DNA of 32,000 nt from Candidatus Thalassarchaeaceae archaeon (GTDB taxonomy: Archaea > Thermoplasmatota > Poseidoniia > Poseidoniales > Thalassarchaeaceae). The notes under the pieces are model-generated. The model was given only the letters and a program-made list of their open reading frames with translations, had not been told where the DNA came from and did not search any database. Within the stretch, counting starts at the first letter, position 1; every line of letters begins with the position of its first letter. The stretch is taken from positions 270,001 through 302,000 of the forward strand of contig JBJLBP010000001.1 in the NCBI GenBank assembly GCA_045568075.1, in the 5' to 3' direction. A program made the position numbers and the translations under genes. Of this stretch, positions 2,764-32,000 are shown piece after piece.

Positions 2764-5700
2764 GTGGTCGGAATGAACAAAGAGATACAGACTTGGTATG
2801 GTCGAGAAAATAGGAAGAAGAGCACGTCAGCCCTGATGATGGTAGTGCTGATGCTACTGAGCACACAGATGTACAATTTCATCGGTGCTGAAGAGGCTGA
2901 AACCAGCCTTGAGGGGCCGGAAGAAACTCCTGCTCGGACTGCTTACCAGCAGTTCTACCAGAGTGGCGGAGCTAGTGCAGGCGAGACTCAAGGCCAGCCG
3001 GCTTCGACCGCTGACTTCCAGCACCCAGCCTTCTCTGATGCGAATTGGGTCGATCCAGCCTCATACCAAGGCAAGATCTCCGACCCCTCCATTCTCCTGA
3101 CCGACCCAGGATACGGATTCCACCTTGAGGAGACCAATACCGAAGACCACGACAATGATGGAATCAATGATCTCGATGACCTCGATGACGACAATGATGG
3201 AATCAGCGATCTCATCGAGCGCTTCGACGGATGCTATGGAACCGATCCATTCGACCACGATAACGACGGAATCGATGACGAGAGTGATTGGGATGACGAT
3301 AACGATGGAATCCTAGAGGGCCCTATTGACTACTCACAAGGCTCCGATCCTTGGAATGTCAGTGCCGACCGTTACGTCATGCCGAATGTAGTTCATCCAT
3401 GGACTGGAACTCCGGTTGGCACCGGTTACCGAATCGATCAGAATCTGATGGATCACGATAACGATGGCGTCACCGATGAAGACATCGATGGCAGTGGGCG
3501 TGGCTCCTACGATGAGGACGACGACAACGACGCTCGCATCGATCAATTCACTTGGCCATGCGATTTCGATGGTGACGGAGCTCAGGATTACTTCGACGAC
3601 GACGACGATAACGACGGCGTCGTAGATCTCTGGGACTCACACCCTTGGGATGCCTCAATTACCACTAACATCACCGCCACAGCACCTCTTTGGGATGATT
3701 GGTATCAGTGGGTGTCTGCTGAGACTCATGATATCGAAATCAGCCCAGGAAACTTGTTCTCTCCTCGAGCATTAACCATCAATGAGGGCGATACTGTTGT
3801 ATGGACCAACGCTGATTCTCAAGATCACACAGTGACATCAGATATCGGCCTCTTCGACAGCGGTACCATCGTTCCTGGCGCAAGCTTCACATTCACCTTT
3901 GACAATGCAGGGACATTCAGCTATGTTTGCAATATCCATCCGGCTATGACTGGCACAATCACAGTTCAGTCAACGAGTGGTTCCGACAATACTTACTCCG
4001 AATATATCGGCGGTGTCGACTATGTTTCGATGGAAGCAAATGTGTGGCACCCTAGAAATCAATCCTTTACCGAAGTTGTCGATGGTGATCTCGACGGTGA
4101 TGGAATCCCGAACTTCCTTGATCCTGACAACGATAACGACGGAACACCTGACTCAGCCGATACTGATGATGACAACGATGGCTTACTCGACATGTACGAT
4201 GTCGACGACGACAATGATGGAATATGGGATGAATGCATGCAACTCGATACAAACTCGGATGGCGAAGGCGATTATCCAAATTCCTTCGATATCCAAACTC
4301 CTGGGCGTGATTGTGAGATTGATTACGACAGGGACGCGGACGATGATCGATTTCGTCCAATTGATATGGATTACGATTTGGTATGGGATTGGATGGATCC
4401 AGACATGGGAGCACTTGAACTCGATGAGCTCGACAACCCGAATGGCGCTCCTCGGAACGATCCGGATGACGAGCCCTACGATCTAGACAATGATGGCGTC
4501 CTAAACGAAGCAGACCCGTACATGCTTGCTACAGAGGAGCAAGTCAGTGAGTGGGACTGCGCCACTCAGACTAACCCCAATCCACAGAATTCCGACATGA
4601 ATTGCACCGTCGCACGTAAGTCGTACACCGGAAATAATGACTGGGATGGTGACGGTCTGAATAACTGGGAGGACCGTGATGATGATAACGACGGAATCCT
4701 CGATTGGCTAGATATTGATCCGAATTGTGATTTCGACGATGACAATGATTTGCATCTACTCAATGGTTCCCGCTTCCGTGACGATGGCCCGAATGACATC
4801 GATACCGATGTTGACGGGGATGGTTTGGCGAACGACGAGGATTGGGACGACGATAACGATGGAATATCAGATTACTACGACCCCGATGACGGAAACTGTG
4901 GAGTGGTCGACCAAGACCAGACCGACCCCTTCGCGACATATTATGGATACTCACACGGTGATGGAGACATAATCGACGGTTCAGACGACAGCGACCTTTG
5001 GGCACAATTCGAGAATACGCACTGGAAGATGTGGTGGCACTTCAATCCGTTCACAGAGGAAAATGGATTCATCTATCCTCACAATGGCTACGACGATTCT
5101 ACCGTGCCTCTGACAAATGGGCAGATTCCTGAGATGTATTGGTATGTCCTCATGCATTGGAGCCCTTGGAATGGAGCTAATTATTTCGATATTGACGTAG
5201 ACGGCGATTCACTTCAGAATGGAATCGACGTCGATTCGGATGGAGATGGACTTCCCGATTGGTGGGATCAAGATGAAGGGAATGATGGAGTTCTGGATGT
5301 TAATGATCCAGGCCAAGGAGGCTCATTCGACAATAACGAGTGTGGTTACACATTTTGGTGGCTTCTAATCGCCCAACAAGCCATTGAGCAAGCATGTGGA
5401 CTGCCGTACGCCTGGCTTTACGGTTACCCTGTTATTCCGGCCAGTCGGACGAACGGAATGTCATTCACTATTCCCTATTCCAGCCGACCCGATGCAGATA
5501 TGGACCAAGGGGCTTACAATGGAACCAATTCACAAGGTCAGTGGACCTGTGAGACTCAATGTTGGCATTTCGATTTCTTAGGTCAAGGTGATGCTGGACC
5601 GAGCGCGGCTGTAAATTACAACCAGATGAAGGATAATCGGGATTTGTATACCGCTTGGGTCGGAATCACTTTCGGATTCTTCCAATGGACTGCTGACAGT

Positions 5701-8700
5701 AATGCCAATTTATTCCCCGATGAAGTCGCTGATTTATTGAATAATGATGTTGATCCCGATGACGATTGTGGCGCTCCCATTCCAGGAAATTTAAATCCTC
5801 AATGTATGGTGAATGACACAGCAGATTTGGATGATGATTTCGACGGAGTCTACGATCATTGGGATGTCGACGACGATAACGATGGAATCTGGGATTATTT
5901 CGAAATCGACAGTAATGACGATCTCGACGACGACGCCAATATCGATGCCTCGAATTTCTTTACCGGCACAAATTGTGATGACAATGACGACGATGGAACC
6001 GACACGGATCCAGACGACGACGGTTGGTACCAAGCCGTCTGGGACAAAGGTGTGTTAGGACAGGGACTCCTATTCCCTGTGTACTACGATGTCGACAATG
6101 ATAACGACGGAGTCCCTGATGGAGAAGACCCGGATGACGATAACAATGGAGTTTCCGACGCATTACAAGAAACTCTTTGCTTCGTCGGTGAAGAACAGAG
6201 TGTTTGGGATCATGATAACGACGGTATCCTTGACTGGGCTGATGACGACTGGGACGCCGATGGATTGGTCAATACTCTTGAGTTGAATACAGCCACACCG
6301 TTCATCTCTCCATGGGATCATGATAACGACGGATTGAGAGATGACATCGATCTCGACGACGATTCGGACGGTATGCTGGATAAGGACGAGATTATGCTAT
6401 GGCCATCTCGCTTCGGTCAGGAATCAACAAACCCGTGGGACCACGACGATTACGGAAATGGAACAGGTCCCGCTAACCCCTCTGATCCATTCACCGGTCC
6501 GGACGCGATTGACGAGGATGATGACAACGACGAGAGGCCCGATCGCGATTGGGACCATCTCGAAGAGGACTGGTCGAATTCCTCAGATTGGGATAGCGAT
6601 AACGACGGAATCCTTGACGAGGATGACAAGGTGCCTACGAGAATCAATCTCACGAGCGCTAACGTCCTCTGGCTCGATGCTGTAAATCCAGCCGTTTTCC
6701 GTGGTACTGTGAACTGGCTCGACCCTGATACAGGCGTCTTCGAGCCAGCTCCAGACCTGCCGGTTCAGATTTCTATCGAATGGGCTCGAAATGGCACCCT
6801 TGCCCTCGAGACCGTCGATGTTCTGACCGATGCGGCTGGAGCTTTCGTAGTCGGACAATTCCTCTTGCCAGAGGATCTCATTGTAGGTCCTAACACGACT
6901 TACAATGTCTACGCGGAAGTCACAGAAATGTTCTATCACGACGGTTCACAGACCGAACCGATACCTGTAGAAGTTCGCGCCAATACATCGATTGACTACG
7001 TCGCATGGACATACTTCCGCAGCGATGAGCAACCACTCTTCACAGATTACAAGGTGCATTATGAGGCTGATTGGGATCGAGGAATCTTCGACAATCGAAT
7101 TCCTAACGCACCAGTCTCCTTCCGCGTTCACGGCGGACCATTCGGCAACCACACCCACCCGACCATCTTCGATGGATACGGCTACGGTTACCGCGCCGAT
7201 TCAGGTGGATGGGTCTCACTAACCTTCGTCCAAACCGCCGGCGCACAGGGTCAGTGGAAGCAGGTTCAGTGGAATTCAACCATGGATAATGGCGTTGGCA
7301 AGCTACCAGGCGGCTACGAAGAAATCGTCTGGGATGACAATGCGAAAGATCACTTCGTCCTCGGACGTTATGACTACACAAACACCAGTTTGCCGATTGG
7401 TGATTATGCATTCATTGGTTTCGCCCGCCCCGACTTGGGCGATGAATGGCCATTCCCATACCTTGAGCAGTCCGAGACAGAAGCGTTTGCTATCCGCTCG
7501 ATGCACCGAATGTACATCGAAGCTGACATGTTTACGCCATCGACTCGGCCGGTTTACTTCTGGGACACCACACAGTTCACTGGATCGTCCTTCGGAGCGT
7601 GGAGGGCTCTCTTCCACCAACCAAGTCTTGACACCGCTGGCCTCGCCTACGAAGACGTAAGCCTCGGCAAGCCGTATGCGATGACTTGGGATGGAACTCC
7701 TGAGGGACTAACTGGAGAGAGTTCCCGACTACGTCCGTTCCTCTCTTCGAACGGAACTCATTGGCGTATCGGCATGCAGAACGGTGGCGACTTCAATGTG
7801 CCACCTTGCGGACCAGTCGACCCGGTTGATCCGAATAGTGACGTTCGCTGCGAGATTATCCCTGAGATGTTTACCGGAGAGACTCTGAGAGTCATCGGAA
7901 GCGTTTGGAATCGGACTTTGGTTCCATGGCCGCATGACCCGATGACGCTACAGGTCGATCTCGATCGTAATGGAATCTTCGCGGGCTCGCAAGAGACTGG
8001 ATACGCTCGAGCACCACAGATGGTGAACGGTGTCGCGACTTTCGATTACAACTGGACCTGGTATTCTCAATATGCAGCAGGTCACTACGGAATACGTGCT
8101 GACTTCACCAACTCGAACTACTACTTCACAGGAAACCAGAGTTCGGTCCTCGCTCCTACGGGCGCTTACCTCAATGTCTCAGTCATTGGAACAACCGAGT
8201 TCAAGGAATTGCTTGAACCGCGCCTATATCGTGGCCAAAATCGCACAATCGAGGTTCAGTTGCTTGATAATTCGTTGCAGCCGCTGAAGAATTCTCAGAT
8301 TAATTATGTTTGGAGTGCGGATGGCACCAATGGCATCGCTGAGACTGACGGAACGGGTTGGTTCTCGGTCAATCTAACGATTGAGAAGGATCACAATCTG
8401 GGCAACTTCACCCTCTCTTACAACTACCCAGGTGATCCTCGCCACCAAGGAACCTCTGGAACGATGGATCTCTGGGTTGTCTCACGCACTTACATCACAC
8501 TGCAAGGTACAACCCCGAACATACGCTCCAATGGAGATATCTGGGAATTCTCAGCACAGGTGACAGATGACAATCGCACAGCCATCATCAAGGATTCCGG
8601 ACAGGCTTTGGACGGATGTGGTGAGAATGGCGGAGAAGTTCTCCTGATTATGGAAGGAACCGACTTCGACGATCGAACCCATAGACAAATCGTCGAGACC

Positions 8701-10740
8701 CTATGTCCGAACGCAGGAAACATCCACCACGAGATGGTGTTGGATCCACAACTCCTGCGCGACGACCCGCAATCCTTCCTACCGGATGGATTCGGTCCAG
8801 TAAACGTCGTATTGCGCTTCGAGGAGAACCTACCTCACGAGGGCTGTGAACCACTCGACGCAGATGCGATGAGCACTTCCGGCGCATGGGACCCATGCGC
8901 CCAGATGGTGAACAGCGATCACTTCCGCAGAGTCATGCAGTTCCAAGTCGATGGGTTCAGCCTCATCGGCCGAACAGTTCTCAACGTCGACGATCAGATT
9001 GTTTACACTTCTGAAATCGATCCATCGACCGGACAGCCAATCGAGAAGCCCATGGTCGTCACCGGCCAGCTCGTTGACGAACTCGGATCTAACCTCTCTA
9101 ACCGCGCTGTGCGCGTAACATACGAGATGGTCGGCTCTGAGACGGGAATCGTGGGTTGTCTACCAGGAACCTCAAACATGGACGGATTCTTCGAGATCAC
9201 CTGCCCGCTTTCCGGCGTTCAGGCGGGACAAGCCCGAGTGAAGGTCGAGTTCAATTCATACGAGAATAACGACCGCTACCGCTACCACAATGCAAGCGTA
9301 ACACGACTGTTCCCGGTCTTCTCGAACTCGACTATGCACCTGCAAGAAATTGGTCCGTTCCGAAATGACATCGATTCGTACACCTTCCAGAATGGCTCGG
9401 TTTTCCCGGTGCTGTATCTCAAGGAGTCATTCCACCTCGATGCTAGGTTAACTCAGACGAATGGTAATCCGATTGGCGGTAAGTGCCTGAACATCTACCT
9501 CGATCCTGAGGTTAACACTCGGCCAATCGCCACTTCGATTACGCGTGACGGAACTGGTGAAATCGAGTGGTTCAGCGGTGACCCGGAAGACAATCCCAGT
9601 CGCCGAGGAGTCGAACCGACATCTGAGATGATGGAAGGATTCAGAGTAGTTAGAATCGCATACGAACCGACTAAGGAATTACCTGGCGGATGTCGTGCCG
9701 AGACAACTCCGGTTGTCAATGGTTCCTTCATCGATATCGAAGTCCTCGTCAGGAGCCGCGTTGACATCCTACTGAAGAACCACTGGTCAAATCCAGATGG
9801 ATATCAGGAAGGAGATTGGATCAACGGATCGGTCGCAATTCTGCGCGACCGACTCGACCTCGCGGTCGAGCACCAAACGGTGATCTTCACCTACCAGTAT
9901 TGGAATGCCGAGGAAGGCATGTGGCTTCCACACAACGTGGTCTACGCTACTACGAACGAATTGGGTGTGGCATCGTTTAGCTTCGAATACTCGGGTGAAA
10001 ATATACCTGGAGAACTCGAATGTAGCCAGGCCGGTTATTGTATCGACGAAGGAAGATGGCAAGTCATAATCCACTTCAAGGGCTCACACGAGTTTGAAGA
10101 GGAATATCTCAACAATACGCCTGAAATCTATCTTGGTGAATTAGTCGCGAAGGGCGATACGAGCTTCTTCACGGTGCAGGTATTGACGATTCTAGGAATC
10201 GCAATGGCCTTCGCTCTGATGGTCGGCGCAATCATGTATCGCAATTACATTGAGCGCCGACGCATCGAGATTCTGCGCGGAATACTCACCGACTCGCTAA
10301 TGTCGCTAAAGGCGTCGAACGAATACATCGACACCATCTTCAACTGCTACAAGGAATTAGTACGATTCTTCCGCAGTCGAGGCGCGATGAAGAAGGTCTA
10401 CGAGACCACGCGAGAATTCGAGGATGCTGTGAGCACAATGCTCAGCGGCATTGCGCCGCCAGAGGATCTCAATGTCTTCTTCTCACTCTTTGAAGAAGCA
10501 AGGTACTCTGACCACGAGATTGGTGCAGACCAGCGAGACCGAGCCATCGGTGCGCTGCAGTCCATCATCAACCACATCAGTGCCTCTTTGGGCGAAGGAA
10601 TGCTAAACCGAACCACTGCTAATGAGTCCGGCCTTTACGGCTCAGTCATCAAGGCTGGCTCGTTCGTTGACTCCGAGGGTCAAGAGCGCATCGCCGGAAT
10701 CGATGACGGTTCAGACGGCGACGGCGGCTTCCGAATCTGA
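2764..10740 (+). CDS. Giant secreted, C-terminally membrane-anchored surface protein with Asp-rich Ca-binding-type repeats, a cupredoxin domain, Ig-like beta modules, a TM helix and a DUF4129-like tail
   Basis: Uninterrupted 2658-codon ORF. AGGAG at 2751-2755 lies 8 nt upstream of GTG 2764, and an alternative ATG lies at 2773. The N-terminus has a Sec-type signal (RENRKK, then a hydrophobic core, then IGA/EE). About 30 DxDxDGxxD motifs follow, then many N-x-S/T sequons. A single C-terminal TM helix is followed by a positively charged stretch. Confidence 0.9.
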   Translation: MVGMNKEIQTWYGRENRKKSTSALMMVVLMLLSTQMYNFIGAEEAETSLEGPEETPARTAYQQFYQSGGASAGETQGQPASTADFQHPAFSDANWVDPASYQGKISDPSILLTDPGYGFHLEETNTEDHDNDGINDLDDLDDDNDGISDLIERFDGCYGTDPFDHDNDGIDDESDWDDDNDGILEGPIDYSQGSDPWNVSADRYVMPNVVHPWTGTPVGTGYRIDQNLMDHDNDGVTDEDIDGSGRGSYDEDDDNDARIDQFTWPCDFDGDGAQDYFDDDDDNDGVVDLWDSHPWDASITTNITATAPLWDDWYQWVSAETHDIEISPGNLFSPRALTINEGDTVVWTNADSQDHTVTSDIGLFDSGTIVPGASFTFTFDNAGTFSYVCNIHPAMTGTITVQSTSGSDNTYSEYIGGVDYVSMEANVWHPRNQSFTEVVDGDLDGDGIPNFLDPDNDNDGTPDSADTDDDNDGLLDMYDVDDDNDGIWDECMQLDTNSDGEGDYPNSFDIQTPGRDCEIDYDRDADDDRFRPIDMDYDLVWDWMDPDMGALELDELDNPNGAPRNDPDDEPYDLDNDGVLNEADPYMLATEEQVSEWDCATQTNPNPQNSDMNCTVARKSYTGNNDWDGDGLNNWEDRDDDNDGILDWLDIDPNCDFDDDNDLHLLNGSRFRDDGPNDIDTDVDGDGLANDEDWDDDNDGISDYYDPDDGNCGVVDQDQTDPFATYYGYSHGDGDIIDGSDDSDLWAQFENTHWKMWWHFNPFTEENGFIYPHNGYDDSTVPLTNGQIPEMYWYVLMHWSPWNGANYFDIDVDGDSLQNGIDVDSDGDGLPDWWDQDEGNDGVLDVNDPGQGGSFDNNECGYTFWWLLIAQQAIEQACGLPYAWLYGYPVIPASRTNGMSFTIPYSSRPDADMDQGAYNGTNSQGQWTCETQCWHFDFLGQGDAGPSAAVNYNQMKDNRDLYTAWVGITFGFFQWTADSNANLFPDEVADLLNNDVDPDDDCGAPIPGNLNPQCMVNDTADLDDDFDGVYDHWDVDDDNDGIWDYFEIDSNDDLDDDANIDASNFFTGTNCDDNDDDGTDTDPDDDGWYQAVWDKGVLGQGLLFPVYYDVDNDNDGVPDGEDPDDDNNGVSDALQETLCFVGEEQSVWDHDNDGILDWADDDWDADGLVNTLELNTATPFISPWDHDNDGLRDDIDLDDDSDGMLDKDEIMLWPSRFGQESTNPWDHDDYGNGTGPANPSDPFTGPDAIDEDDDNDERPDRDWDHLEEDWSNSSDWDSDNDGILDEDDKVPTRINLTSANVLWLDAVNPAVFRGTVNWLDPDTGVFEPAPDLPVQISIEWARNGTLALETVDVLTDAAGAFVVGQFLLPEDLIVGPNTTYNVYAEVTEMFYHDGSQTEPIPVEVRANTSIDYVAWTYFRSDEQPLFTDYKVHYEADWDRGIFDNRIPNAPVSFRVHGGPFGNHTHPTIFDGYGYGYRADSGGWVSLTFVQTAGAQGQWKQVQWNSTMDNGVGKLPGGYEEIVWDDNAKDHFVLGRYDYTNTSLPIGDYAFIGFARPDLGDEWPFPYLEQSETEAFAIRSMHRMYIEADMFTPSTRPVYFWDTTQFTGSSFGAWRALFHQPSLDTAGLAYEDVSLGKPYAMTWDGTPEGLTGESSRLRPFLSSNGTHWRIGMQNGGDFNVPPCGPVDPVDPNSDVRCEIIPEMFTGETLRVIGSVWNRTLVPWPHDPMTLQVDLDRNGIFAGSQETGYARAPQMVNGVATFDYNWTWYSQYAAGHYGIRADFTNSNYYFTGNQSSVLAPTGAYLNVSVIGTTEFKELLEPRLYRGQNRTIEVQLLDNSLQPLKNSQINYVWSADGTNGIAETDGTGWFSVNLTIEKDHNLGNFTLSYNYPGDPRHQGTSGTMDLWVVSRTYITLQGTTPNIRSNGDIWEFSAQVTDDNRTAIIKDSGQALDGCGENGGEVLLIMEGTDFDDRTHRQIVETLCPNAGNIHHEMVLDPQLLRDDPQSFLPDGFGPVNVVLRFEENLPHEGCEPLDADAMSTSGAWDPCAQMVNSDHFRRVMQFQVDGFSLIGRTVLNVDDQIVYTSEIDPSTGQPIEKPMVVTGQLVDELGSNLSNRAVRVTYEMVGSETGIVGCLPGTSNMDGFFEITCPLSGVQAGQARVKVEFNSYENNDRYRYHNASVTRLFPVFSNSTMHLQEIGPFRNDIDSYTFQNGSVFPVLYLKESFHLDARLTQTNGNPIGGKCLNIYLDPEVNTRPIATSITRDGTGEIEWFSGDPEDNPSRRGVEPTSEMMEGFRVVRIAYEPTKELPGGCRAETTPVVNGSFIDIEVLVRSRVDILLKNHWSNPDGYQEGDWINGSVAILRDRLDLAVEHQTVIFTYQYWNAEEGMWLPHNVVYATTNELGVASFSFEYSGENIPGELECSQAGYCIDEGRWQVIIHFKGSHEFEEEYLNNTPEIYLGELVAKGDTSFFTVQVLTILGIAMAFALMVGAIMYRNYIERRRIEILRGILTDSLMSLKASNEYIDTIFNCYKELVRFFRSRGAMKKVYETTREFEDAVSTMLSGIAPPEDLNVFFSLFEEARYSDHEIGADQRDRAIGALQSIINHISASLGEGMLNRTTANESGLYGSVIKAGSFVDSEGQERIAGIDDGSDGDGGFRI
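3145..6627 (+). repeat. Array of about 30 thrombospondin type-3-like / EF-hand-like Asp repeats (coding), with a recurring nucleotide core GAYGAYGAYAAYGAYGGAATC
   Basis: Recurrent peptide (W/x)D(D/H)DNDG(I/V/L)xDxxD. Examples are DDDNDGISD, DHDNDGIDD, DDDNDGILD, DDDNDGIWD, DHDNDGILD and DSDNDGILD. Near-identical DNA cores occur near 3186, 3294, 4206, 4681, 4849, 5871, 6214, 6314 and 6594. Confidence 0.85.
3727..3969 (+). other. Type-1 (blue) copper cupredoxin domain embedded in the giant protein
   Basis: HDIEISPGNLFSPRALTINEGDTVVWTNADSQDHTVTSD...GTFSYVCNIHPAMTGTITVQ. Candidate Cu ligands are His (codon 3826-3828), Cys (3928-3930), His (3937-3939) and Met (3946-3948). The spacing is C-x2-H-x2-M. 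Confidence 0.8.
10165..10737 (+). other. C-terminal TM anchor (10165-10236) plus a cytoplasmic tail of roughly 165 aa resembling DUF4129
   Basis: FFTVQVLTILGIAMAFALMVGAIM is followed by YRNYIERRRIE (positive-inside). The tail contains TTREFEDAV...FFSLFEEARYSDHEIG, which resembles the DUF4129 pattern (TxxE ... YExARYS). Confidence 0.6.
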
Positions 10741-12605: not shown

Positions 12606-14774
12606 ATGGTCCCGGAGGGCTCGGATGATTGGGCGAACAGCGCCCGGATTGAGGAGCTGGCAGGACTCCTCGCACACCATTCTAACCTCTACTACAATGA
12701 GGCCGCTCCAGAGATTCCCGACGCCGAATATGACTTACTCTTCGACGAATTGAAGCAACTATCACCCGATCACCCACAACTAACCAAGGTAGGTTCGGAC
12801 CCCGCACCAGGATCTGTGAAGGTTGACCACTTGTTCCCAATGCGCAGTCTCGATAAGGCAACTGAGGCCGAGGAAGTCATCCATTTTGTTGCAGAAACCA
12901 CTGCTCACGGCCGCCGCTTTGTCTGCCAACCCAAACTCGACGGTTCAGCCCTATCGCTGGAATACCGTCGAGGCCGTCTAGTCCGTGCGGCCACGCGCGG
13001 AAATGGTGAGCGTGGCGAAGATGTCACAGCAAACGCTCGCCGAATCTCAAACATTCCAGAACAACTTGCTTGGGATGGTGATGCCCACGTACGAGGAGAA
13101 GTGGTGATGCCACTCGATATTTTCCGCTCGAAATACGCAAACATCGCCCCAAATCCGCGCAATCTCGCATCCGGCAGCTTACGGCAGAAGAGTGCCGATG
13201 CCGGCAAAGGAGACGCAGCTGACCTCGTATTCCACGCCTATGATGTGATGTTCCCCGAACTTGCCGACCGACACCCTGACAGCCCCTCTCCACCAGATTT
13301 CACCTTCGACTCGCAAGAGATCGATTGGTTGGTTGCAAACGGTATCGAAGTGGCTGGCAACGATGTGGTCGAAGGCGATGACGATGAGGCCGTTACAAAT
13401 GGAATTCTCGATGTCACTCAGCGCTGGACTGAGCACCGAGAAAACGCCTCGTGGGAGATCGACGGAGTCGTCATCAAACTAGATGACCTTGCAAAGCGAA
13501 GTCTCCTCGGCCAGACCGCACATCATCCTCGATGGGCACTAGCGTGGAAATTCCCTCCCGAGGAGGCATCGACAGTTCTGCTAGGAGTCGATTGGCAGAC
13601 AGGTCGGACCGGCACGGTCACCCCTGTGGCGAGAGTCGCACCGGTAACAGTCTCCGGCGTAACTGTCGAAAACACGACACTGCACAACGCCGGAGAGATT
13701 GAAAGATTGGGAATCAGCATCGGCGACAGAGTCCGAATTGTCCGTAGAGGCGATGTGATTCCCAAAATAATCGAGGTTCTCGGGCCCGCAGACCAAACTG
13801 ACCTCGACAATAGATTCCGTGCGGATGGTACTGCCTTCAGCGACCCGCTACCGCTACGCCAAGCCGTCCCAATTCCTCACGAATGCCCACGATGTGGCAC
13901 ACAACTGAAGCAGGACGGTGCCTTCATCCGCTGCTTCAACCTTGATTGCCCATCGCGCCTAGAGCGTGCAATTCTCTACTGGTGTCGAGCGCTTGAGATG
14001 GACGGCATCGGAGAGAAACTCGCAGAACAACTCTGTGAGGAAGGCCTCGTCAAGAGCTTGCCCGATCTCTACGCACTGACTCACTCAGATCTCGTAGGCC
14101 TCGAGCGCATGGGTGAGAAATCAGCAGCCAATGTCGTCACTCAACTAGATTCAACCCGCTCGCTCAACCTCTCATCCTTCCTCTCAGCCCTAGGATTGCC
14201 TGGAATAGGCCCAGAATTAGCAAGTGCCTTCGCACGTGAAGTAGGAGAAGCAACCACTCTGTTTGACTTGTTAGCCGAACCGGAGGAAGCCATCCCACGA
14301 CTGGTCACAATCGATGGCGTAGGAGAAACAGTAGCACGCTCATTCCTCGAAGGCTTAGATGAACGCAAGAGCGTCGTCGAAGGATTGGTGGACGTCCTCC
14401 TAATCGAAGCAGAACAAGTGATCGAAGAGGCGGACGGCCCTCTCACTGGTCAGACATTCTGTATCACAGGCACCCTAGGCCGTCCGCGAAAAGAAATCGC
14501 TCTGATGATCAAAGCAGCAGGAGGGAAAGTTGTCTCAACAGTCTCTGGCAAGCTCGACCACCTCGTCGCCGGAAACTCGGCTGGCTCCAAGTTGGACAAG
14601 GCGAATAGGCTCTCAGTCAACGTCCTCAGCGAAATTGACCTTGAAGCCATGCTCGCCGGCGAATCAACTCTAGACGATGGAAGCGTCGACGAAGCGGAAG
14701 GAGAAATTGTCGCCGACGCCGGCCCACAGCAGATGTCCCTCGGCGACTACGGTTCGTCGGAACCAGTAGAATAG
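12606..14774 (+). CDS. ligA: NAD+-dependent DNA ligase LigA (bacterial type)
   Basis: 722-aa ORF. It has the N-terminal Ia-domain pattern LLAHHSNLYYNEAAPEIPDAEYDLLFDEL and the adenylation motif CQPKLDGSA (KxDG). It also has the Zn finger CPRCG...CFNLDCP, HhH repeats and a BRCT domain (LTGQTFCITGTL...GGKVVSTVSGKLDHLVAG). The C-terminal tail is acidic. Confidence 0.93.
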   Translation: MVPEGSDDWANSARIEELAGLLAHHSNLYYNEAAPEIPDAEYDLLFDELKQLSPDHPQLTKVGSDPAPGSVKVDHLFPMRSLDKATEAEEVIHFVAETTAHGRRFVCQPKLDGSALSLEYRRGRLVRAATRGNGERGEDVTANARRISNIPEQLAWDGDAHVRGEVVMPLDIFRSKYANIAPNPRNLASGSLRQKSADAGKGDAADLVFHAYDVMFPELADRHPDSPSPPDFTFDSQEIDWLVANGIEVAGNDVVEGDDDEAVTNGILDVTQRWTEHRENASWEIDGVVIKLDDLAKRSLLGQTAHHPRWALAWKFPPEEASTVLLGVDWQTGRTGTVTPVARVAPVTVSGVTVENTTLHNAGEIERLGISIGDRVRIVRRGDVIPKIIEVLGPADQTDLDNRFRADGTAFSDPLPLRQAVPIPHECPRCGTQLKQDGAFIRCFNLDCPSRLERAILYWCRALEMDGIGEKLAEQLCEEGLVKSLPDLYALTHSDLVGLERMGEKSAANVVTQLDSTRSLNLSSFLSALGLPGIGPELASAFAREVGEATTLFDLLAEPEEAIPRLVTIDGVGETVARSFLEGLDERKSVVEGLVDVLLIEAEQVIEEADGPLTGQTFCITGTLGRPRKEIALMIKAAGGKVVSTVSGKLDHLVAGNSAGSKLDKANRLSVNVLSEIDLEAMLAGESTLDDGSVDEAEGEIVADAGPQQMSLGDYGSSEPVE

Positions 14775-27184: not shown

Positions 27185-27505
27185 GATTCAATCGGCGGGA
27201 GGAGGTCGGATTTAGAACGAGATTTGTTTTCTTTCAAATGCTGAAAATCAATCGCATTATTCGGATTACGTTCGATGTGGTAAACTCAATATTTTTTGGT
27301 AGTTTCAGTTTAACCGAATTACAACTAAATAATTCCGAAATTCGGAGTTGTTTGTTTTAAAAATCCCCTTAATGTGTAATAAACACCCGCAGTACCCCAC
27401 TTTTTGGTATCGAAGACTTCCTGTTCCCAAACCCCTGAAAACGGTGTGTTTAGAATCAAAATAGCGAACTTCTATAACAAATACGGAATGTGGTAGGCTG
27501 CACTA
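27185..27505. promoter_or_regulatory. AT-rich divergent intergenic region (purM <-> ABC transporter) with TATA-like boxes and repeated ATTCGG half-sites
   Basis: This is visibly the most AT-rich stretch of the window. TCTATAACAAATA (27471-27483) lies about 25 nt upstream of ATG 27506, and TTTTAAAAAT lies near 27355. The palindrome TCCGAAATTCGGA is at 27334-27346. Further ATTCGG/CCGAAT half-sites lie near 27260 and 27314. TTTTTGGTA occurs twice, near 27294 and 27401. Confidence 0.5.
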
Positions 27506-30500
27506 ATGAGCGTGAGATACACCATGTTAGACAAGAAAATGATTGCAATGCTGATGACTCTCAGTATGCTTGCGGCTGCGTTCGCAGGCTGTCTGGGTGG
27601 GGAAGATGAGGACGATGACTGGACTCTGATGCCAGCTGACGATGTGTCGGCTGACTTCGTGACTTCAGACTGGGACCCAATCATCCCCAATTTGAACGAC
27701 GGCGAGATGTGCGATGCCATTATCTCGGCGATGACGAAGACGGAGGAGCGCGACCAAGTCGTCGACTTCACTCGTGGTTACTACACAAGTAGCCAGGGTG
27801 TAATCGGTGCGGCTGGATCCGCAGCTATCTCGGACGTCTCGGACCTGAATGCGGCTGGTACAACCGTCGCTGTTCAATCCGGAACGACCTCTGACCTCTA
27901 TGCCCAAGACAATCTTGCGGCCGCGACAATTGTTGCGTACGGAGATTTCCCCTCGGTCATAGCGGCAGTCGGAAACGGTGAGGCGGACTACGCCATGGGT
28001 GATTCACCTGTGCTCGCGCTGTCTGGCGACCTGATGACGACTTTCTCAGATGAGACCTTCGGACTCGCAGTCCGTGAGGACTCGGGCGAATTGCTCGATG
28101 CCCTCAATGTCGCAATCACTGCGATTGTTGACTCTGGCGAGTACGATGCCATCTTTGGCGCTTGGTTCGACGGAGCTGTCGTCCTCACGGATGACCGCAA
28201 TGACGACACCGCGACCTCGTACCCAACCCCAAGTGAGGGTTCAACCCTCTCTGCGGTTCTCGAGTCCGGTTCGCTCATGTTGTGCTCTGACACTGCTTAC
28301 CCGCCGTTCGAGAGCCTCGATGAGGACGGTAACGCTGTTGGATTCGACGTTGACGTCGCAAACGCGCTTGTCGATGAGATCGCTGCTCACTACATGGGTA
28401 ACGATAACCCAGTATTCGTAGCTCCAGTATCAGAATCAATGAAGATTGGTATGCTAAACCCAATGACTGGTCCAATCGCAGTCTATGCACCTCCGTTCAC
28501 GGTGTCTGCACAGATGGCAATTGACGACCTCAATGCAATGGGCGGAAACTTCGAGCTTGTAGAGGCTGACTCGGGCTGTGACGGTACTGTCGCAGCAACA
28601 GCAGCACAGGCTCTTGTCGACGCTGGTGTTGTAGGTGTCGCTGGTGCAGCATGTTCCGGTGCTTCAATGGGTGCTAACGCAGTACTCAGTGCAGCAGGAG
28701 TTGTACAGGTGTCATACGCAAGTACTAACCCTGGTCTTTCTGACTCTGCTGCTTACCCACACTTCTACCGTGTGGTTCCAAGCGATGCAATTCAGGGACC
28801 CGCCATGTCTGACATGGTGGGCGCTACTGGCGCGGCCAACCCGGCTCTGCTGCACATGACCAACGACTACGGTTCTGGTCTAGCAGACGCCTTCGCGGAC
28901 GCTTGGGGTGGGGAGGAATTCCTTTGCACCAAGATCGGATACGCGGATGACCAAACAGACTTCGCAGCAGAAGTACAGGCCATCGCCGACGCTGGTTGCG
29001 ACTCGGTGGTCATGGTGACTTACTCTGCAGATGGTGCTGCTATCCTTGAGACAATGGCCTACCTCGGCCTAGCTCTGCCAACTTTCGGCGCTGACGGAAT
29101 TGCAGACGGAGCCTTCTTGGAAGACTTTTCAGCCCCTGCTGCTGCTAACGGTGTCCAAGCTACTAAGCCTCGAGCAGGCTCTAGTGCTGGAGACTTCGTA
29201 GAGCGCTGTGCTGCAGATGCAGACTGTGCTGGTGGTATCTACACTGCTGAGACATACGACGCAGTAATGATGATTGGAAAGGCCGCTATGATGGAAGACG
29301 GCGCTAACATGCCCACACACATGGGAATGGTCGGCACTGACTACCAAGGAGCATCAGGAGTACACACTTTCGATGCTGCAGGCGACGTCGCAGGTGCAGG
29401 TTACGATATTTGCAGCTTCGATGCGCTATCAAGCACAGATGTCTTCTTCAGCTGCCGAGCTTACTGGACCCGTGACGGTGGAGTCGCTGCAAGCGAGTTC
29501 ACTGGCGCGACCGTCAAGGTTGGTTTCCTTAACCCAATGACAGGTCCAATTGCTGTCTACGCACCGGGCTTCGGAGTTGCGGCAAACGTCGCTCTTGGAA
29601 TGATGAACATCGCAGGCTGGGGATCCGGCCTACAGTTCGAAATGGTCATGGCCGATTCAGGCTGTGATGGAACTGCAGCAGCTGCTGCAGCCCAGACTCT
29701 AGTAGATGCTGGAGTTATTGGTGTAGTTGGAGCAGCATGTTCTGGTGCTACAATGGCCGCTAACGCTGTTCTCAGCGCAGCCGGAATCCCAATGATCTCG
29801 TACGCAAGTACTAACCCAGGTCTAAGTGATGCAACAGCATATCCACACTTCTTCCGTGTGGTTCCAAGCGATGCGATTCAGGGCCCTGCTCTAGCTGATG
29901 TAGTCACTGCAGGTGGCTCCAGCAACATCGCACTTCTGCACATGACCAACGACTACGGTTCAGGTCTTGCAGATTCGTTCGACGCTGCTTGGACGGATGC
30001 AGGTAACACACTCTGCACCAAGATAGGCTATGCTGACACCGATACCGACTTTACCTCTCAGGTTCAGTCAGTTGTCGATGGTGGCTGTGACAGTGTAATG
30101 TTGATTTCGTACGCTGCAGATGGTGCTGCAATCGTTGAGGAGTTATCTGCTCAAGGATTCGCTGGTGCAATCTACGGTGGAGATGGAGTTGCTGAAGAGG
30201 GACTTTGTGCCTCTATGGCAGACAACTCAATCTGTGACGGAATAGTTGCTACCAAGCCAGCATCTGCTACACCTAACGAGCGCTCGATGGCTTTCGCCGC
30301 AATTTGTGGCGATATTCCAGACTGTGCTGGTGGTATCTACACCGCTGAGGCATTCGATGCTATGATCATCATGGGATACGCGTACTTCGCAGGCGCATCT
30401 GCACCTGCTGGTACCTCAATGACCCAGTTGATTGCAGCAACAGGCCAAGGCTTCGTTGGTGCTAGTGGTGTCCACAGCTTCGATGCTGCTGGAGATGTAG

Positions 30501-30604
30501 CCGGTAACGGATACTGCGTCGGTACGTTCAACGTCGACGCGGGCGCTGTGTCGTTCGACTGCGACCGATTCTGGTCGCGCGACGCCGGCGTGCAAAACGC
30601 GTGA
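27506..30604 (+). CDS. Triple-domain ABC substrate-binding lipoprotein: PBP2 (polar amino-acid type) domain plus two tandem LivK-like PBP1 domains
   Basis: 1032-aa ORF. The signal plus lipobox-like sequence is MLMTLSMLAAAFAGC. The SBP_bac_3-like segment is DWDPIIPNLNDGEMCDAIISAMTKTEERDQVVDFTRGYY...AWFDG. Two LivK-like units each start K(I/V)G(M/F)LNPMTGPIAVYAP and contain ADSGCDG...GAACSGA...SYASTNPGLSD..YPHF(Y/F)RVVPSD. Confidence 0.88.
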   Translation: MSVRYTMLDKKMIAMLMTLSMLAAAFAGCLGGEDEDDDWTLMPADDVSADFVTSDWDPIIPNLNDGEMCDAIISAMTKTEERDQVVDFTRGYYTSSQGVIGAAGSAAISDVSDLNAAGTTVAVQSGTTSDLYAQDNLAAATIVAYGDFPSVIAAVGNGEADYAMGDSPVLALSGDLMTTFSDETFGLAVREDSGELLDALNVAITAIVDSGEYDAIFGAWFDGAVVLTDDRNDDTATSYPTPSEGSTLSAVLESGSLMLCSDTAYPPFESLDEDGNAVGFDVDVANALVDEIAAHYMGNDNPVFVAPVSESMKIGMLNPMTGPIAVYAPPFTVSAQMAIDDLNAMGGNFELVEADSGCDGTVAATAAQALVDAGVVGVAGAACSGASMGANAVLSAAGVVQVSYASTNPGLSDSAAYPHFYRVVPSDAIQGPAMSDMVGATGAANPALLHMTNDYGSGLADAFADAWGGEEFLCTKIGYADDQTDFAAEVQAIADAGCDSVVMVTYSADGAAILETMAYLGLALPTFGADGIADGAFLEDFSAPAAANGVQATKPRAGSSAGDFVERCAADADCAGGIYTAETYDAVMMIGKAAMMEDGANMPTHMGMVGTDYQGASGVHTFDAAGDVAGAGYDICSFDALSSTDVFFSCRAYWTRDGGVAASEFTGATVKVGFLNPMTGPIAVYAPGFGVAANVALGMMNIAGWGSGLQFEMVMADSGCDGTAAAAAAQTLVDAGVIGVVGAACSGATMAANAVLSAAGIPMISYASTNPGLSDATAYPHFFRVVPSDAIQGPALADVVTAGGSSNIALLHMTNDYGSGLADSFDAAWTDAGNTLCTKIGYADTDTDFTSQVQSVVDGGCDSVMLISYAADGAAIVEELSAQGFAGAIYGGDGVAEEGLCASMADNSICDGIVATKPASATPNERSMAFAAICGDIPDCAGGIYTAEAFDAMIIMGYAYFAGASAPAGTSMTQLIAATGQGFVGASGVHSFDAAGDVAGNGYCVGTFNVDAGAVSFDCDRFWSRDAGVQNA
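28442..30601 (+). repeat. Intragenic tandem duplication (two LivK-like units of about 1.08 kb each)
   Basis: Unit 1 starts at AAG 28442 and unit 2 at AAG 29516, an offset of 1074 nt. Later anchors are offset by 1086 nt (TACGCAAGTACTAACCC at 28715 vs 29801; CACATGACCAACGACTACGG at 28853 vs 29939), implying a 12-nt indel. The stretch CCACACTTCTxCCGTGTGGTTCCAAGCGATGCxATTCAGGG is nearly identical in both units. Confidence 0.9.
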
Positions 30605-30638
30605 ACTCGTAGAGAACACGCACTGGGAACGTAAAGCT

Positions 30639-30684
30639 CCCCAGCGGGAAATACCCGCTGGGGGGCCCCCCTAACCCCCTTTTT
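30639..30684 (+). terminator. Perfect 10-bp GC-rich hairpin followed by a C-rich tract and T5
   Basis: CCCCAGCGGG-AAATA-CCCGCTGGGG (30639-30663) lies 35 nt after the SBP stop. It is followed by GGCCCCCCTAACCCCC and TTTTT (30680-30684). It may attenuate read-through into the permease gene. Confidence 0.55.
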
Positions 30685-30731
30685 GAAACTGCAGAGTTGA
30701 AACTGAATTCTAATTCCCAACGGTGTGCCAG

Positions 30732-32000
30732 ATGATGGAATCTGCCAGATCCGCTTGGAATTCCCTCCCTCGTGGCCAGCGACGCCTGATCATCTCACTG
30801 GCAATAATGGTCGATGCCTGGGTCGGTCTTCGCTACGGTTTCGGCTCGCTTAATCTCCTTGACAAGATTCTGAGTGGCGGTATTCCGAATGACATGGTTT
30901 GGCTCCTTCAGATTGTCATCGCAATTTCGGGCGGATTTATGCTCATCAAGATCCTCTTCGACGATGTCCCCGAACATCCCATCCGCTCGATAGGAATCGC
31001 TTGTTCACCTCTCTTTCTTCTCTTCATAGTCTACTTGACTCTAGATATCCTGTTCAAAGGAATGTCTGATGATGCAATCATCACTCTCGATTTGATTTCT
31101 ATCAGTGTCGGCACACTGACATGGTCAACGACTTATCTGGCGATAGCAGTCGGCCTGACGTTGACATACAAGGTCCAGCGATACGGAAATTTCGCACAAT
31201 CTGAATTCTTCATGATTGGGATGTATCTGTCCATGGTTATGGTCTGGGTTGACCAATTCTACCCATTAGCCTCAGCACCACGTGATGGCGTTCTGGTCTG
31301 GTCATTGCTGCTATGGACTATCATCGGTGCCTTCGTTCTCACAGGAATCGCTGGAATCGTCATCGACCGTTTGGTCTACCGTGGTTTCCGCCAGAAAAAC
31401 GCCTCACCTCAAGTGATGATGATTGCCTCACTCGGTATCGCTCTAATCCTTCGCGCCTTGGTCTACTTACGATTCGGCGCGGGAAAGAAAATGTTCGAAC
31501 CAGACGCTGATTGGCGAGTCCCGTCCCTTCGTTGGGACATTCCCACTACCAAGTTGCGATTTTACCTTGGAGATCGCAGCATCGATGAGGGTTCTACGTA
31601 CACTCTGAATTCCTGCGATGCTGAGGGCGGAGAACGAATAGTCGTCGAAGGTAGCAAACCGCTCTTTGAGACATATGATTTGGCGACCAATTGTGTCGAT
31701 CAAGCGACGACCGGCTATGCTTACTACAAGGGAGCAATGCCGGCCGTGATTTTCATCTCGGTGATTCTACTTCTGATTCTCCTGAACAAGACAAGGCTCG
31801 GTCGCCGCATGCGTGCTGTGGCCGACAACCCCGACCTAGCCGCCTCTAGCGGCATTAACGTCGAGAACGTGCAGATGACTAGCGCTTTCCTTTCGGCTGG
31901 CCTCTCGGGTATGGGTGGAGCTATCTTTGCGATGACGCTGCGCTTCACACCAGAGACCGCTTTCAGTCTACTTCTCCCCTCATTCGCCGTCATTGTCCTC
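30732..32000 (+). CDS. livH: Branched-chain amino-acid (HAAT family) ABC transporter permease LivH-like, 3' end cut by window edge
   Basis: This ORF is not in the supplied track because it has no stop in the window. I translated it by hand from ATG 30732 to nt 32000 and found no stop. The motifs are AIAVGLTLTYKVQRYGNFAQSEFFMIGMY and NKTRLGRRMRAVADNPDLAASSGINVENV...LSAGLSGMGGA, which are LivH/BPD_transp_2 signatures. Confidence 0.85.
   Translation, partial: MMESARSAWNSLPRGQRRLIISLAIMVDAWVGLRYGFGSLNLLDKILSGGIPNDMVWLLQIVIAISGGFMLIKILFDDVPEHPIRSIGIACSPLFLLFIVYLTLDILFKGMSDDAIITLDLISISVGTLTWSTTYLAIAVGLTLTYKVQRYGNFAQSEFFMIGMYLSMVMVWVDQFYPLASAPRDGVLVWSLLLWTIIGAFVLTGIAGIVIDRLVYRGFRQKNASPQVMMIASLGIALILRALVYLRFGAGKKMFEPDADWRVPSLRWDIPTTKLRFYLGDRSIDEGSTYTLNSCDAEGGERIVVEGSKPLFETYDLATNCVDQATTGYAYYKGAMPAVIFISVILLLILLNKTRLGRRMRAVADNPDLAASSGINVENVQMTSAFLSAGLSGMGGAIFAMTLRFTPETAFSLLLPSFAVIVL

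Follow-up and report, generated by a model that had tools for sequence, protein, structure and literature searches.

Here we describe a gene for a three-domain binding protein encoded in a 32,000-nucleotide stretch of DNA (hereafter the window) of a Candidatus Thalassarchaeaceae archaeon (GenBank assembly GCA_045568075.1, contig JBJLBP010000001.1, positions 270,001 to 302,000 of the forward strand). A single chain contains, in this order, a module of the SBP_bac_3 family (PBP2 class) and two LivK-type domains (PBP1 class), and its gene is followed by that of a fused LivH-LivM permease. The features of the locus are listed in Table 1.

Table 1. Features of the receptor locus (positions in the window; aa, amino acid residues of the 1032-residue reading frame).
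Feature	Coordinates	Strand	Remarks
TATA-like AT-rich box TTCTATAACAAATA	27470..27483	+	About 25-50 nt 5' of both candidate start codons; read from sequence; possible archaeal promoter element
Three-domain binding-protein gene	27506..30604	+	One unbroken open reading frame (ORF), 1032 aa, stop codon within coordinates
Signal peptide and lipobox (..LAAAFAGC, Cys29), predicted lipid anchor	27524..27592	+	Sequence, homologue conservation
Short acidic tether, aa 30-45, LGGEDEDDDWTLMPAD	27593..27640	+	Least conserved stretch, mean column identity 0.60
Segment A of permuted PBP2 module, aa 46-221	27641..28168	+	Equals canonical 48-231: rest of lobe 1, all of lobe 2, C-terminal helices
Conserved linker, aa 222-247, DGAVVLTDDRNDDTATSYPTPSEGST	28169..28246	+	Canonical C-terminus to canonical N-terminus; mean column identity 0.75
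Segment B of permuted PBP2 module, aa 248-296	28247..28393	+	Equals canonical 3-47: strand beta1, ligand loop, helix alpha1
Pro-rich linker to first LivK-type domain, aa 297-311	28394..28438	+	Mean column identity 0.63; no stop or frameshift
LivK-type domain 1 (PBP1; Peripla_BP_6/ANF_receptor), aa 312-660	28439..29485	+	Pfam, LivK alignment, AlphaFold2, Foldseek
LivK-type domain 2, aa 668-1032	29507..30601	+	Pfam, AlphaFold2, Foldseek; 55% identical to domain 1
GC-rich hairpin in receptor-permease spacer	30636..30684	+	Perfect 13-bp stem (30636-30666), then TTTTT (30680-30684)
5' part of fused LivH-LivM permease gene	30732..32000	+	Cut by window end; BPD_transp_2, E = 7e-26

Comparison with Pfam returned SBP_bac_3 at 93.3 bits (cut-off 26.4) in two stretches, accompanied by a weak match to Lig_chan-Glu_bd, and Peripla_BP_6 at 225.7 bits (cut-off 31.7) and ANF_receptor at 207.6 bits (cut-off 25.4), likewise in two stretches each. 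These scores far exceed what chance would give. A preliminary description of this DNA had proposed a single lipobox-bearing polypeptide that combines an SBP_bac_3 domain with two complete LivK-type domains. The domain profiles, the alignments and the conservation of the protein bear this out, and the N-terminal region does match the profile of a substrate-binding protein (SBP).

The same fusion is found far beyond the window. More than 120 protein clusters (90% identity), drawn from independent ENA, JGI, NCBI and Logan assemblies, span at least 96% of the query at 73-99% identity and have the same Pfam content. A survey of related genomes, using one genome per prokaryotic species, recovered 80 loci at 49-96% identity, from 80 species-level genomes; 66 of them contain a complete ORF, and the three-domain order is the same in every complete copy. 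The locus records are titled Poseidoniales, Thalassarchaeaceae, Thalassarchaeum, Marine Group II or, more broadly, Euryarchaeota, Methanobacteriota or Thermoplasmatota in 79 of the 80 cases and just 'bacterium' in the remaining one. Those with a family name belong to Thalassarchaeaceae/MGIIb, and no Poseidoniaceae-named record occurs among the 80. The nearest genomes (95-96% identity) are a Thalassarchaeaceae metagenome-assembled genome (MAG), UBA8684, and an uncultured Poseidoniales MAG, which places the window in an MGIIb archaeon. An artefact, in which a frameshift, a mis-assembly or a chimeric contig had joined separate binding-protein genes, corresponds to a refuting scenario stated in the preliminary description; it has next to no probability left and was rejected, since full-length homologues come from independent assemblies, the 80 loci include records without a MAG label (AG-/AH- isolate names), no stop or frameshift interrupts the domain junctions, which are the same in all 66 complete orthologues, and a published MAG independently annotates a gene of 1038 aa. 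In some MAGs, two paralogous receptor loci are present on different contigs (L035/L040 in JAJPRD01; L023/L037 in CAXGTB01).

Translation probably starts at the ATG at position 27524 (Met7), giving a product of 1026 aa, because the orthologues begin where Met7 stands (MLDKKM/MENKK). The whole protein is strongly acidic (isoelectric point 4.05). Its lipobox region reads MLDKKMIAMLMTLSMLAAAFAGC, as expected for a lipobox lipoprotein, and the residues L-S-M-L-A-A-A-F-A-G-C-L-G-G, with F-A-G-C among them, are at least 90% conserved in 46 homologues. We infer that the receptor is exported and tethered to the membrane via the lipobox Cys. In many orthologues, the stretch from the lipobox to the SBP_bac_3 module contains a short motif with Cys, GCMDATANNYNADATSDDGSCTY, singly or in duplicate, and the motif is sometimes also present between this module and the first LivK-type domain (orthologues P0004, P0039-P0120, P0107, P0115). 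The motif appears to act as a variable spacer and is absent from the protein of the window. One relative (P0129) has no lipobox; its N-terminus consists of CxxC..CxxC, a hydrophobic segment and long Asp-rich repeats of the DxDxDG type that precede the PBP2 module and LivK, which looks like an alternative solution to anchoring and stalk.

The permuted PBP2 module

The preliminary description counted one PBP2 domain at the N-terminus. The assignment to the SBP_bac_3 class stands; the chain order is not canonical but that of a circular permutant. In phmmer alignments with a relative of canonical order (P0148), aa 46-221 correspond to reference residues 48-231 and aa 248-290 to residues 3-45, two complementary and non-overlapping pieces. 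Along the chain the order is residues 48-231, linker, residues 3-45, instead of the sequential order of the canonical fold of the polar amino acid transporter family (PAAT). The best solved relatives of the module are AncCDT-1, AncQR, GlnH and the LAO-binding protein, and on AncCDT-1 (PDB 5t0w, 247 residues) aa 47-221 map to 62-245 and aa 245-293 to 13-61. The linker comprises 26 residues, and the ligand loop of segment B reads ..CSDTAYPPFE...

The module was de-permuted computationally by placing residues 241-297 before residues 44-224. The resulting sequence aligned with 5t0w in one piece (5-235 to 13-245, 108 bits), compared with 100.8 bits, split into two stretches, for the native order, and yielded one SBP_bac_3 stretch in Pfam that covers profile positions 2-131 of 132. 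In its native order, the module aligns colinearly over the junction between the substrate-binding domains SBD1 and SBD2 of the GlnPQ tandem (PDB 6h30). On these alignments, the PBP2 module is a natural circular permutant; no description of a natural SBP_bac_3 permutant was found in the searchable literature. The new N- and C-termini, which stem from a cut loop, should adjoin, so that the module would be pendant on a tether between the anchor and the LivK-type domains.

Four lines of sequence evidence argue that the permuted module is an intact amino-acid-binding site. First, the residues equivalent to the ligand contacts of the LAO-binding protein, which include D11, Y14, F52, S72, R77, T121 and D161, are kept. 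Segment A supplies W56, T77, R82, T127, T128 and D166, and segment B supplies D262 and Y265. Among 67 aligned sequences (identity down to about 49%), no position is conserved in fewer than 62, the exceptions being gaps or, at one position each, A or V; both residues of segment B are invariant (67/67). Second, the mean column identity of the module (0.78-0.79) matches that of the LivK-type domains (0.73-0.76). Third, the module has exactly two Cys residues, C69 in segment A, before the strand DAIISAMT, and C260 in segment B, at the end of beta1, and these two positions covary. Among representatives at no more than 50% identity, both positions are Cys in 13 proteins, neither is Cys in 34 (mostly F/G), and only one, a multi-domain protein, is mismatched; the Cys pair is present in canonical-order and permuted proteins alike. 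Since the two strands are presumably neighbours in the fold, the covariation points to a contact or disulfide between them, which would tie segment B to segment A regardless of chain order. Fourth, the permuted module is retained in a two-domain variant (P0121, 681 aa), in which it is followed by one LivK domain that is nearer to copy 2 (58.6% identity) than to copy 1 (52.1%). The variant occupies the same genomic position, with purM upstream and the giant permease downstream, on three independent contigs (L085-L087).

The module was used as query in an exhaustive HMMER search that covered 1.84 billion representative proteins, and mapping of the 150 best hits onto the canonical reference placed this arrangement in a series. 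The window family and its relatives (P0121-P0129) have the break at about residue 47 (type A). It lies at about residue 200 in type B (P0132, P0134, P0137, P0146 and probably P0138) and at about residues 105-120 in type C (P0135, P0139, P0140, P0145, P0152); in P0130, two type C units stand in tandem. Canonical order is found in P0133, P0148, P0160 and others, at up to 52% identity. Proteins of types B and C are complete, exported and single-domain; they start with a signal peptide and carry at the C-terminus a hydrophobic anchor ending in basic residues. The type B members P0132, P0134, P0137 and P0146 and the type C relatives are 44-55% identical to the module of the window, and the named members of type C come from Heimdallarchaeota/Kariarchaeaceae. 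The loci L083 and L084 belong to these single-domain permuted relatives of marine archaea.

The linker VVLTDD..TAT.YP is common to types A, B and C, which indicates a single common ancestor that already had its C- and N-termini linked. Because the other breakpoints share this linker, a tandem form exists and the module aligns colinearly over the 6h30 junction, the permuted topology probably arose by tandem duplication of an SBP_bac_3 domain and subsequent loss of the outer ends.

Other proteins recovered in the search also depart from the canonical arrangement. Two bacterial-type lipoproteins (P0191 and P0236) have SBP_bac_3 breakpoints at about residues 185 and 145 and unrelated linkers, which suggests that the fold was permuted independently more than once. 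In five arrays of SBP_bac_3 domains (P0164, P0188, P0195, P0246, P0255), the first unit is a C-terminal half (about residues 118-231) and the last an N-terminal half (about 10-110); either the whole array is in the type C frame, or the end halves complement each other. The array of P0164 runs on into hydrophobic, permease-like sequence. Among large archaeal surface proteins that are homologous to each other and have DC.DGSDE repeats and a C-terminal hydrophobic anchor, P0127/P0303 (878-890 aa) hold a type A permuted SBP_bac_3 domain and P0133 (1182 aa), elsewhere in its chain, one of canonical order. The fold thus also serves as an insert in proteins other than transporters.

LivK-type domains, operon and hairpin

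The two LivK-type copies are 55% identical over 362 columns (E = 1e-125), and both align end to end with LivK of E. coli (PDB 1usg); residues 2-330 of domain 1 correspond to 3-338 of 1usg (E = 3e-23). In the AlphaFold2 model, both domains reached a predicted local distance difference test score (pLDDT) of about 80-95, and Foldseek gave template modelling (TM) scores, normalised to the target, of 0.80-0.82 to the LivK/Leu-binding proteins 3td9, 4n0q and 3ip5. The Cys53-Cys78 equivalents of LivK are retained in both copies.

The backbone-binding residues of LivK are W/Y18, C78-S79, T102, Y150, Y202 and E226. Their equivalents are Y/F327, C383, S384, T407, Y455, Y506 and D530 in domain 1 and Y685, C745, S746, T769, Y817, Y869 and D893 in domain 2. 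Both copies have them, with conservation in 65-67 of 67 orthologues at every position but the aromatic one (18), which is Y or F. Both copies have Ala for Leu77 and Ser for Ala101 of LivK. A comparison of the two pockets, envisaged in the preliminary description and run by alignment, found the same residues in both copies at all ten mappable positions and no sign of divergent specificity.

The preliminary description took the next gene for that of a LivH permease. Its assignment to a HAAT-type transporter (hydrophobic amino acid transporter family) holds; the gene itself encodes a giant LivH-LivM fusion and is followed by genes for LivG, with a BCA_ABC_TP_C tail, and LivF. This order is kept in essentially all of the loci from the 80 genomes whose contigs are long enough. 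The fused permease consists of two BPD_transp_2 halves and measures 1220-1400 aa over about 60 loci; full-length copies on long contigs are found at L001:13218-16934 and L002:13242-17213 (1238-1323 aa). At its N-terminus it has about three additional membrane segments; a linker region of about 300 residues contains further hydrophobic segments and matches nothing in Pfam, and each half has inserts that contain Cys. At two loci the permease is split, possibly by assembly frameshifts. The LivK-type domains and the operon belong to the HAAT family by every criterion that can be applied to sequence.

Receptor and permease genes are separated by a spacer of 127 nt (30605-30731), which has a minimum free energy of -45.3 kcal/mol, compared with -31.7 +/- 3.9 kcal/mol for mononucleotide shuffles. 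A perfect inverted repeat is present at the same place in 56 of 65 orthologous loci, with stems that differ and yet remain complementary, and is followed by a T-run in 27 of the 65. The hairpin is likely to be a terminator, an attenuator or an mRNA-stabilising element.

A published data set gives an indication of how the operon is expressed. In the Thalassarchaeaceae MAG SIMO Bin 19-2, gene 436 (3117 bp) is annotated as livK (K01999; ANF_receptor, E = 4.6e-62) and is directly followed by gene 437 (3750 bp, with the KEGG orthology assignments of livH and livM) and then by livG and livF (PMC9723583 and its supplement). Its length and operon arrangement indicate that this 'livK' belongs to the three-domain family. 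Gene 436 was measured at about 12.5 and 9.5 counts per million (CPM), compared with about 0.5 for the permease, an excess of about 20-fold, and livK is listed among the most highly transcribed Thalassarchaeaceae genes (PMC9723583). An attenuating or stabilising hairpin would fit this excess of receptor. Amino-acid transporter proteins of Marine Group II (MG-II) were also reported by Atlantic metaproteomics (PMC5776962).

Proposed role and alternatives

We favour, with some reserve, a model in which the protein is a three-site, lipid-tethered receptor of a HAAT (LivHMGF-type) importer of Marine Group II (Thalassarchaeaceae). The exported receptor would be held by its N-terminal lipobox Cys and would present three Venus-flytrap sites in series, with the permuted PBP2 domain nearest to the membrane and the two LivK-type PBP1 domains beyond it; we infer that all three sites bind amino acids. 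The LivK-type domains would bind amino acids and bring them to the fused LivH-LivM permease by docking there, with LivG and LivF energising transport, as family membership and operon structure suggest. The permuted PBP2 site would act in cis with the same importer, most likely by widening its substrate range or raising the local concentration of substrate. The receptor would be made in excess of the permease, probably by way of the conserved hairpin after its stop codon.

How the PBP2 site contributes is the least certain part of the model. That it docks on and delivers to the BPD_transp_2 (HAAT-type) permease, across classes, is doubtful. The LivH-LivM fusion could offer a docking site in its extra extracellular loops, which contain Cys, and in its added membrane segments, and circular permutation may make the PBP2 domain topologically compatible with this partner.

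Several points count against the favoured model. We know of PBP2-class binding proteins only in combination with BPD_transp_1 (HisQM/GlnP-type) permeases, and no BPD_transp_1 (PAAT-type) permease lies within +/-10 kb of the receptor on two long contigs, so that a role of the PBP2 module at LivHM has no precedent. Structure modelling, proposed as a check in the preliminary description, succeeded for both LivK-type domains and gave no usable model of the N-terminal module: AlphaFold2 assigned it a pLDDT below 50 (residues 1-180) when the full protein was modelled with a 46-sequence family alignment, and a mean pLDDT of 45 when the module was modelled alone with an 11-sequence alignment. The permuted fold is consequently argued from sequence and not from a model. 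We regard the failure of AlphaFold2 as uninformative rather than negative, given the shallow alignments and the non-canonical topology.

Among the alternatives, one has a shade more in its favour than cross-class delivery and is still improbable, namely that the permuted PBP2 domain delivers nothing and serves as a sensor or gate of LivK docking, as a substrate trap near the membrane or as a structural pedestal. The module is membrane-proximal on a short tether, and its class does not match the adjacent permease. Embedding of SBP_bac_3 in large surface proteins that are not transporters (P0127/P0303, P0133) would suit such a role, as would the type B/C relatives P0134 and P0283, beside which no permease gene was called on contigs that are short (3.2 and 5.4 kb). 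A purely structural role is at odds with the almost complete conservation of the residues to which the alpha-amino and alpha-carboxylate groups bind in characterised homologues, conservation with which a sensor would be compatible; for a sensor, no signalling partner is encoded nearby.

Binding proteins of the PBP2 class are matched to permeases of the BPD_transp_1 class, and it is conceivable, with a lower probability than either of the roles above, that the permuted PBP2 domain feeds a second, class-matched PAAT-type (Aap/GlnP-like, BPD_transp_1) permease encoded elsewhere, while the LivK-type domains use LivHM. One tethered protein would then feed two importers. Apart from the class matching itself, the intact ligand-contact residues of the PBP2 module agree with this, as does a separate and complete PAAT-type locus (aapJ, two BPD_transp_1 permeases and an ATPase) in SIMO Bin 19-2, the MAG that also carries the three-domain gene (PMC9723583 supplement). 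That locus, however, already includes a binding protein, aapJ, whose transcription is stronger still; the permuted module invariably comes with the HAAT operon and was never seen beside a BPD_transp_1 gene; and the cis tether to two LivK-type domains would limit its access to another complex.

Very little speaks for the N-terminal region being two decayed fragments, a PBP2 domain without its first 47 residues and the stump of a second domain. AlphaFold2 was unable to fold the region, and some multi-domain bacterial proteins do carry incomplete SBP_bac_3 pieces at their ends. Yet the two pieces complement each other exactly, without overlap or gap, both are conserved like the LivK-type domains (D262 and Y265 in 67 of 67 sequences), the covarying Cys pair bridges them, and the arrangement is kept at 49% overall identity. 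This explanation was rejected on the strength of the complementarity, the conservation and the covariation.

Comparison with known systems and significance

One of the closest known systems is LivJ/LivK with LivHMGF of E. coli. The LivK-type domains share with it the end-to-end alignment, the Cys53-Cys78 equivalents and the backbone-binding Ser, Thr, Tyr and acidic residues, and the transporter shares the BPD_transp_2 permease halves and two ATPases, one with a BCA_ABC_TP_C tail. In contrast to LivJ and LivK, which are free in the periplasm, two LivK-type domains and a PBP2 domain are here combined in one chain with a predicted lipid tether, and LivH and LivM, separate in E. coli, form a single protein of 1220-1400 aa that has additional membrane segments and loops containing Cys.

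Like the receptor of the window, GlnPQ of Lactococcus lactis (PDB 6h30) combines several binding domains in each polypeptide and displays them on a cell that lacks an outer membrane, and the colinear alignment over its domain junction is what would be expected if the permutant derives from such a tandem. In GlnPQ, all binding domains belong to the PBP2 class, keep the canonical order and are joined covalently to a BPD_transp_1 permease, whereas the receptor of the window combines mixed classes with a permuted PBP2 domain in a separate lipobox protein, whose gene is set apart by the 127-nt hairpin spacer from that of a BPD_transp_2 permease.

A natural circular permutation in a membrane-tethered binding protein of an ATP-binding cassette (ABC) transporter is known from TpMglB-2 (Tp0684) of Treponema pallidum, a sugar-binding lipoprotein classified as 'Type Ic / Cluster Bc', whose topology was linked to tethering (PMC4990184) and which keeps its ligand binding. 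TpMglB-2 is a single-domain glucose binder of type I (PBP1) with another breakpoint, whereas the module described here is of type II and fused to two PBP1 domains. We would place the module as an analogue, and not a member, of the TpMglB-2-like 'Type Ic', with which it has the permutation and the retention of the binding site, as read from sequence, in common.

The two classes meet in one polypeptide also in ionotropic glutamate receptors and plant GLR channels, which have a LIVBP-like amino-terminal domain and a LAOBP-like ligand-binding domain (PMC9739336), corresponding to ANF_receptor/Peripla_BP_6 and SBP_bac_3/Lig_chan-Glu_bd. In these channels, PBP1 comes first and PBP2 is interrupted by the ion-channel domain; here, a permuted PBP2 domain comes first, in the receptor of an ABC importer without a channel, and there is no evidence of direct descent between the two. 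The fusion was called unusual in the preliminary description. For ABC transporters this holds, inasmuch as neither a PBP2-plus-PBP1 receptor nor a multi-domain HAAT receptor was found in the searchable literature, an absence that is weak evidence because most subscription journals lie outside its coverage; as a mixture of the two classes in general it is not unique, as the glutamate-receptor channels demonstrate.

The permuted relatives of types B and C are exported like the receptor and have the same C-to-N linker, VVLTDD..TAT.YP. They differ in being single domains with a C-terminal anchor, without LivK fusion and with other chain ends. The unusual features of this conserved and ecologically prominent gene are the cross-class receptor with three sites and the natural permutant from a series of several frames.

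Elsewhere in the window, on the same strand, an ORF of 2658 aa (2764-10740) with weak cupredoxin-like (aa 322-402) and DUF4129 (aa 2528-2598) matches probably encodes a giant surface protein. Positions 12606-14774 (+) encode an NAD-dependent (LigA-type) DNA ligase with adenylation, OB, HhH and BRCT domains, a type typical of bacteria in an archaeal genome.

The SBP_bac_3 fold is heavily used in biosensor engineering. For protein evolution, the canonical-order form, the tandem and at least three permuted frames with one linker make up an unusually complete duplication-deletion series. In transport biology, the receptor would be a natural experiment in which several tethered sites of two structural classes share one translocator; cross-class docking, if true, would break the so far general pairing of binding-protein class with permease family, with one importer served by three sites of two architectures. 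Marine Group II archaea are uncultured and among the most abundant heterotrophs of the surface ocean. Since the 'livK' published as highly transcribed belongs to the three-domain family, the substrate range of this receptor would bear on which dissolved organic nitrogen Marine Group II takes up.

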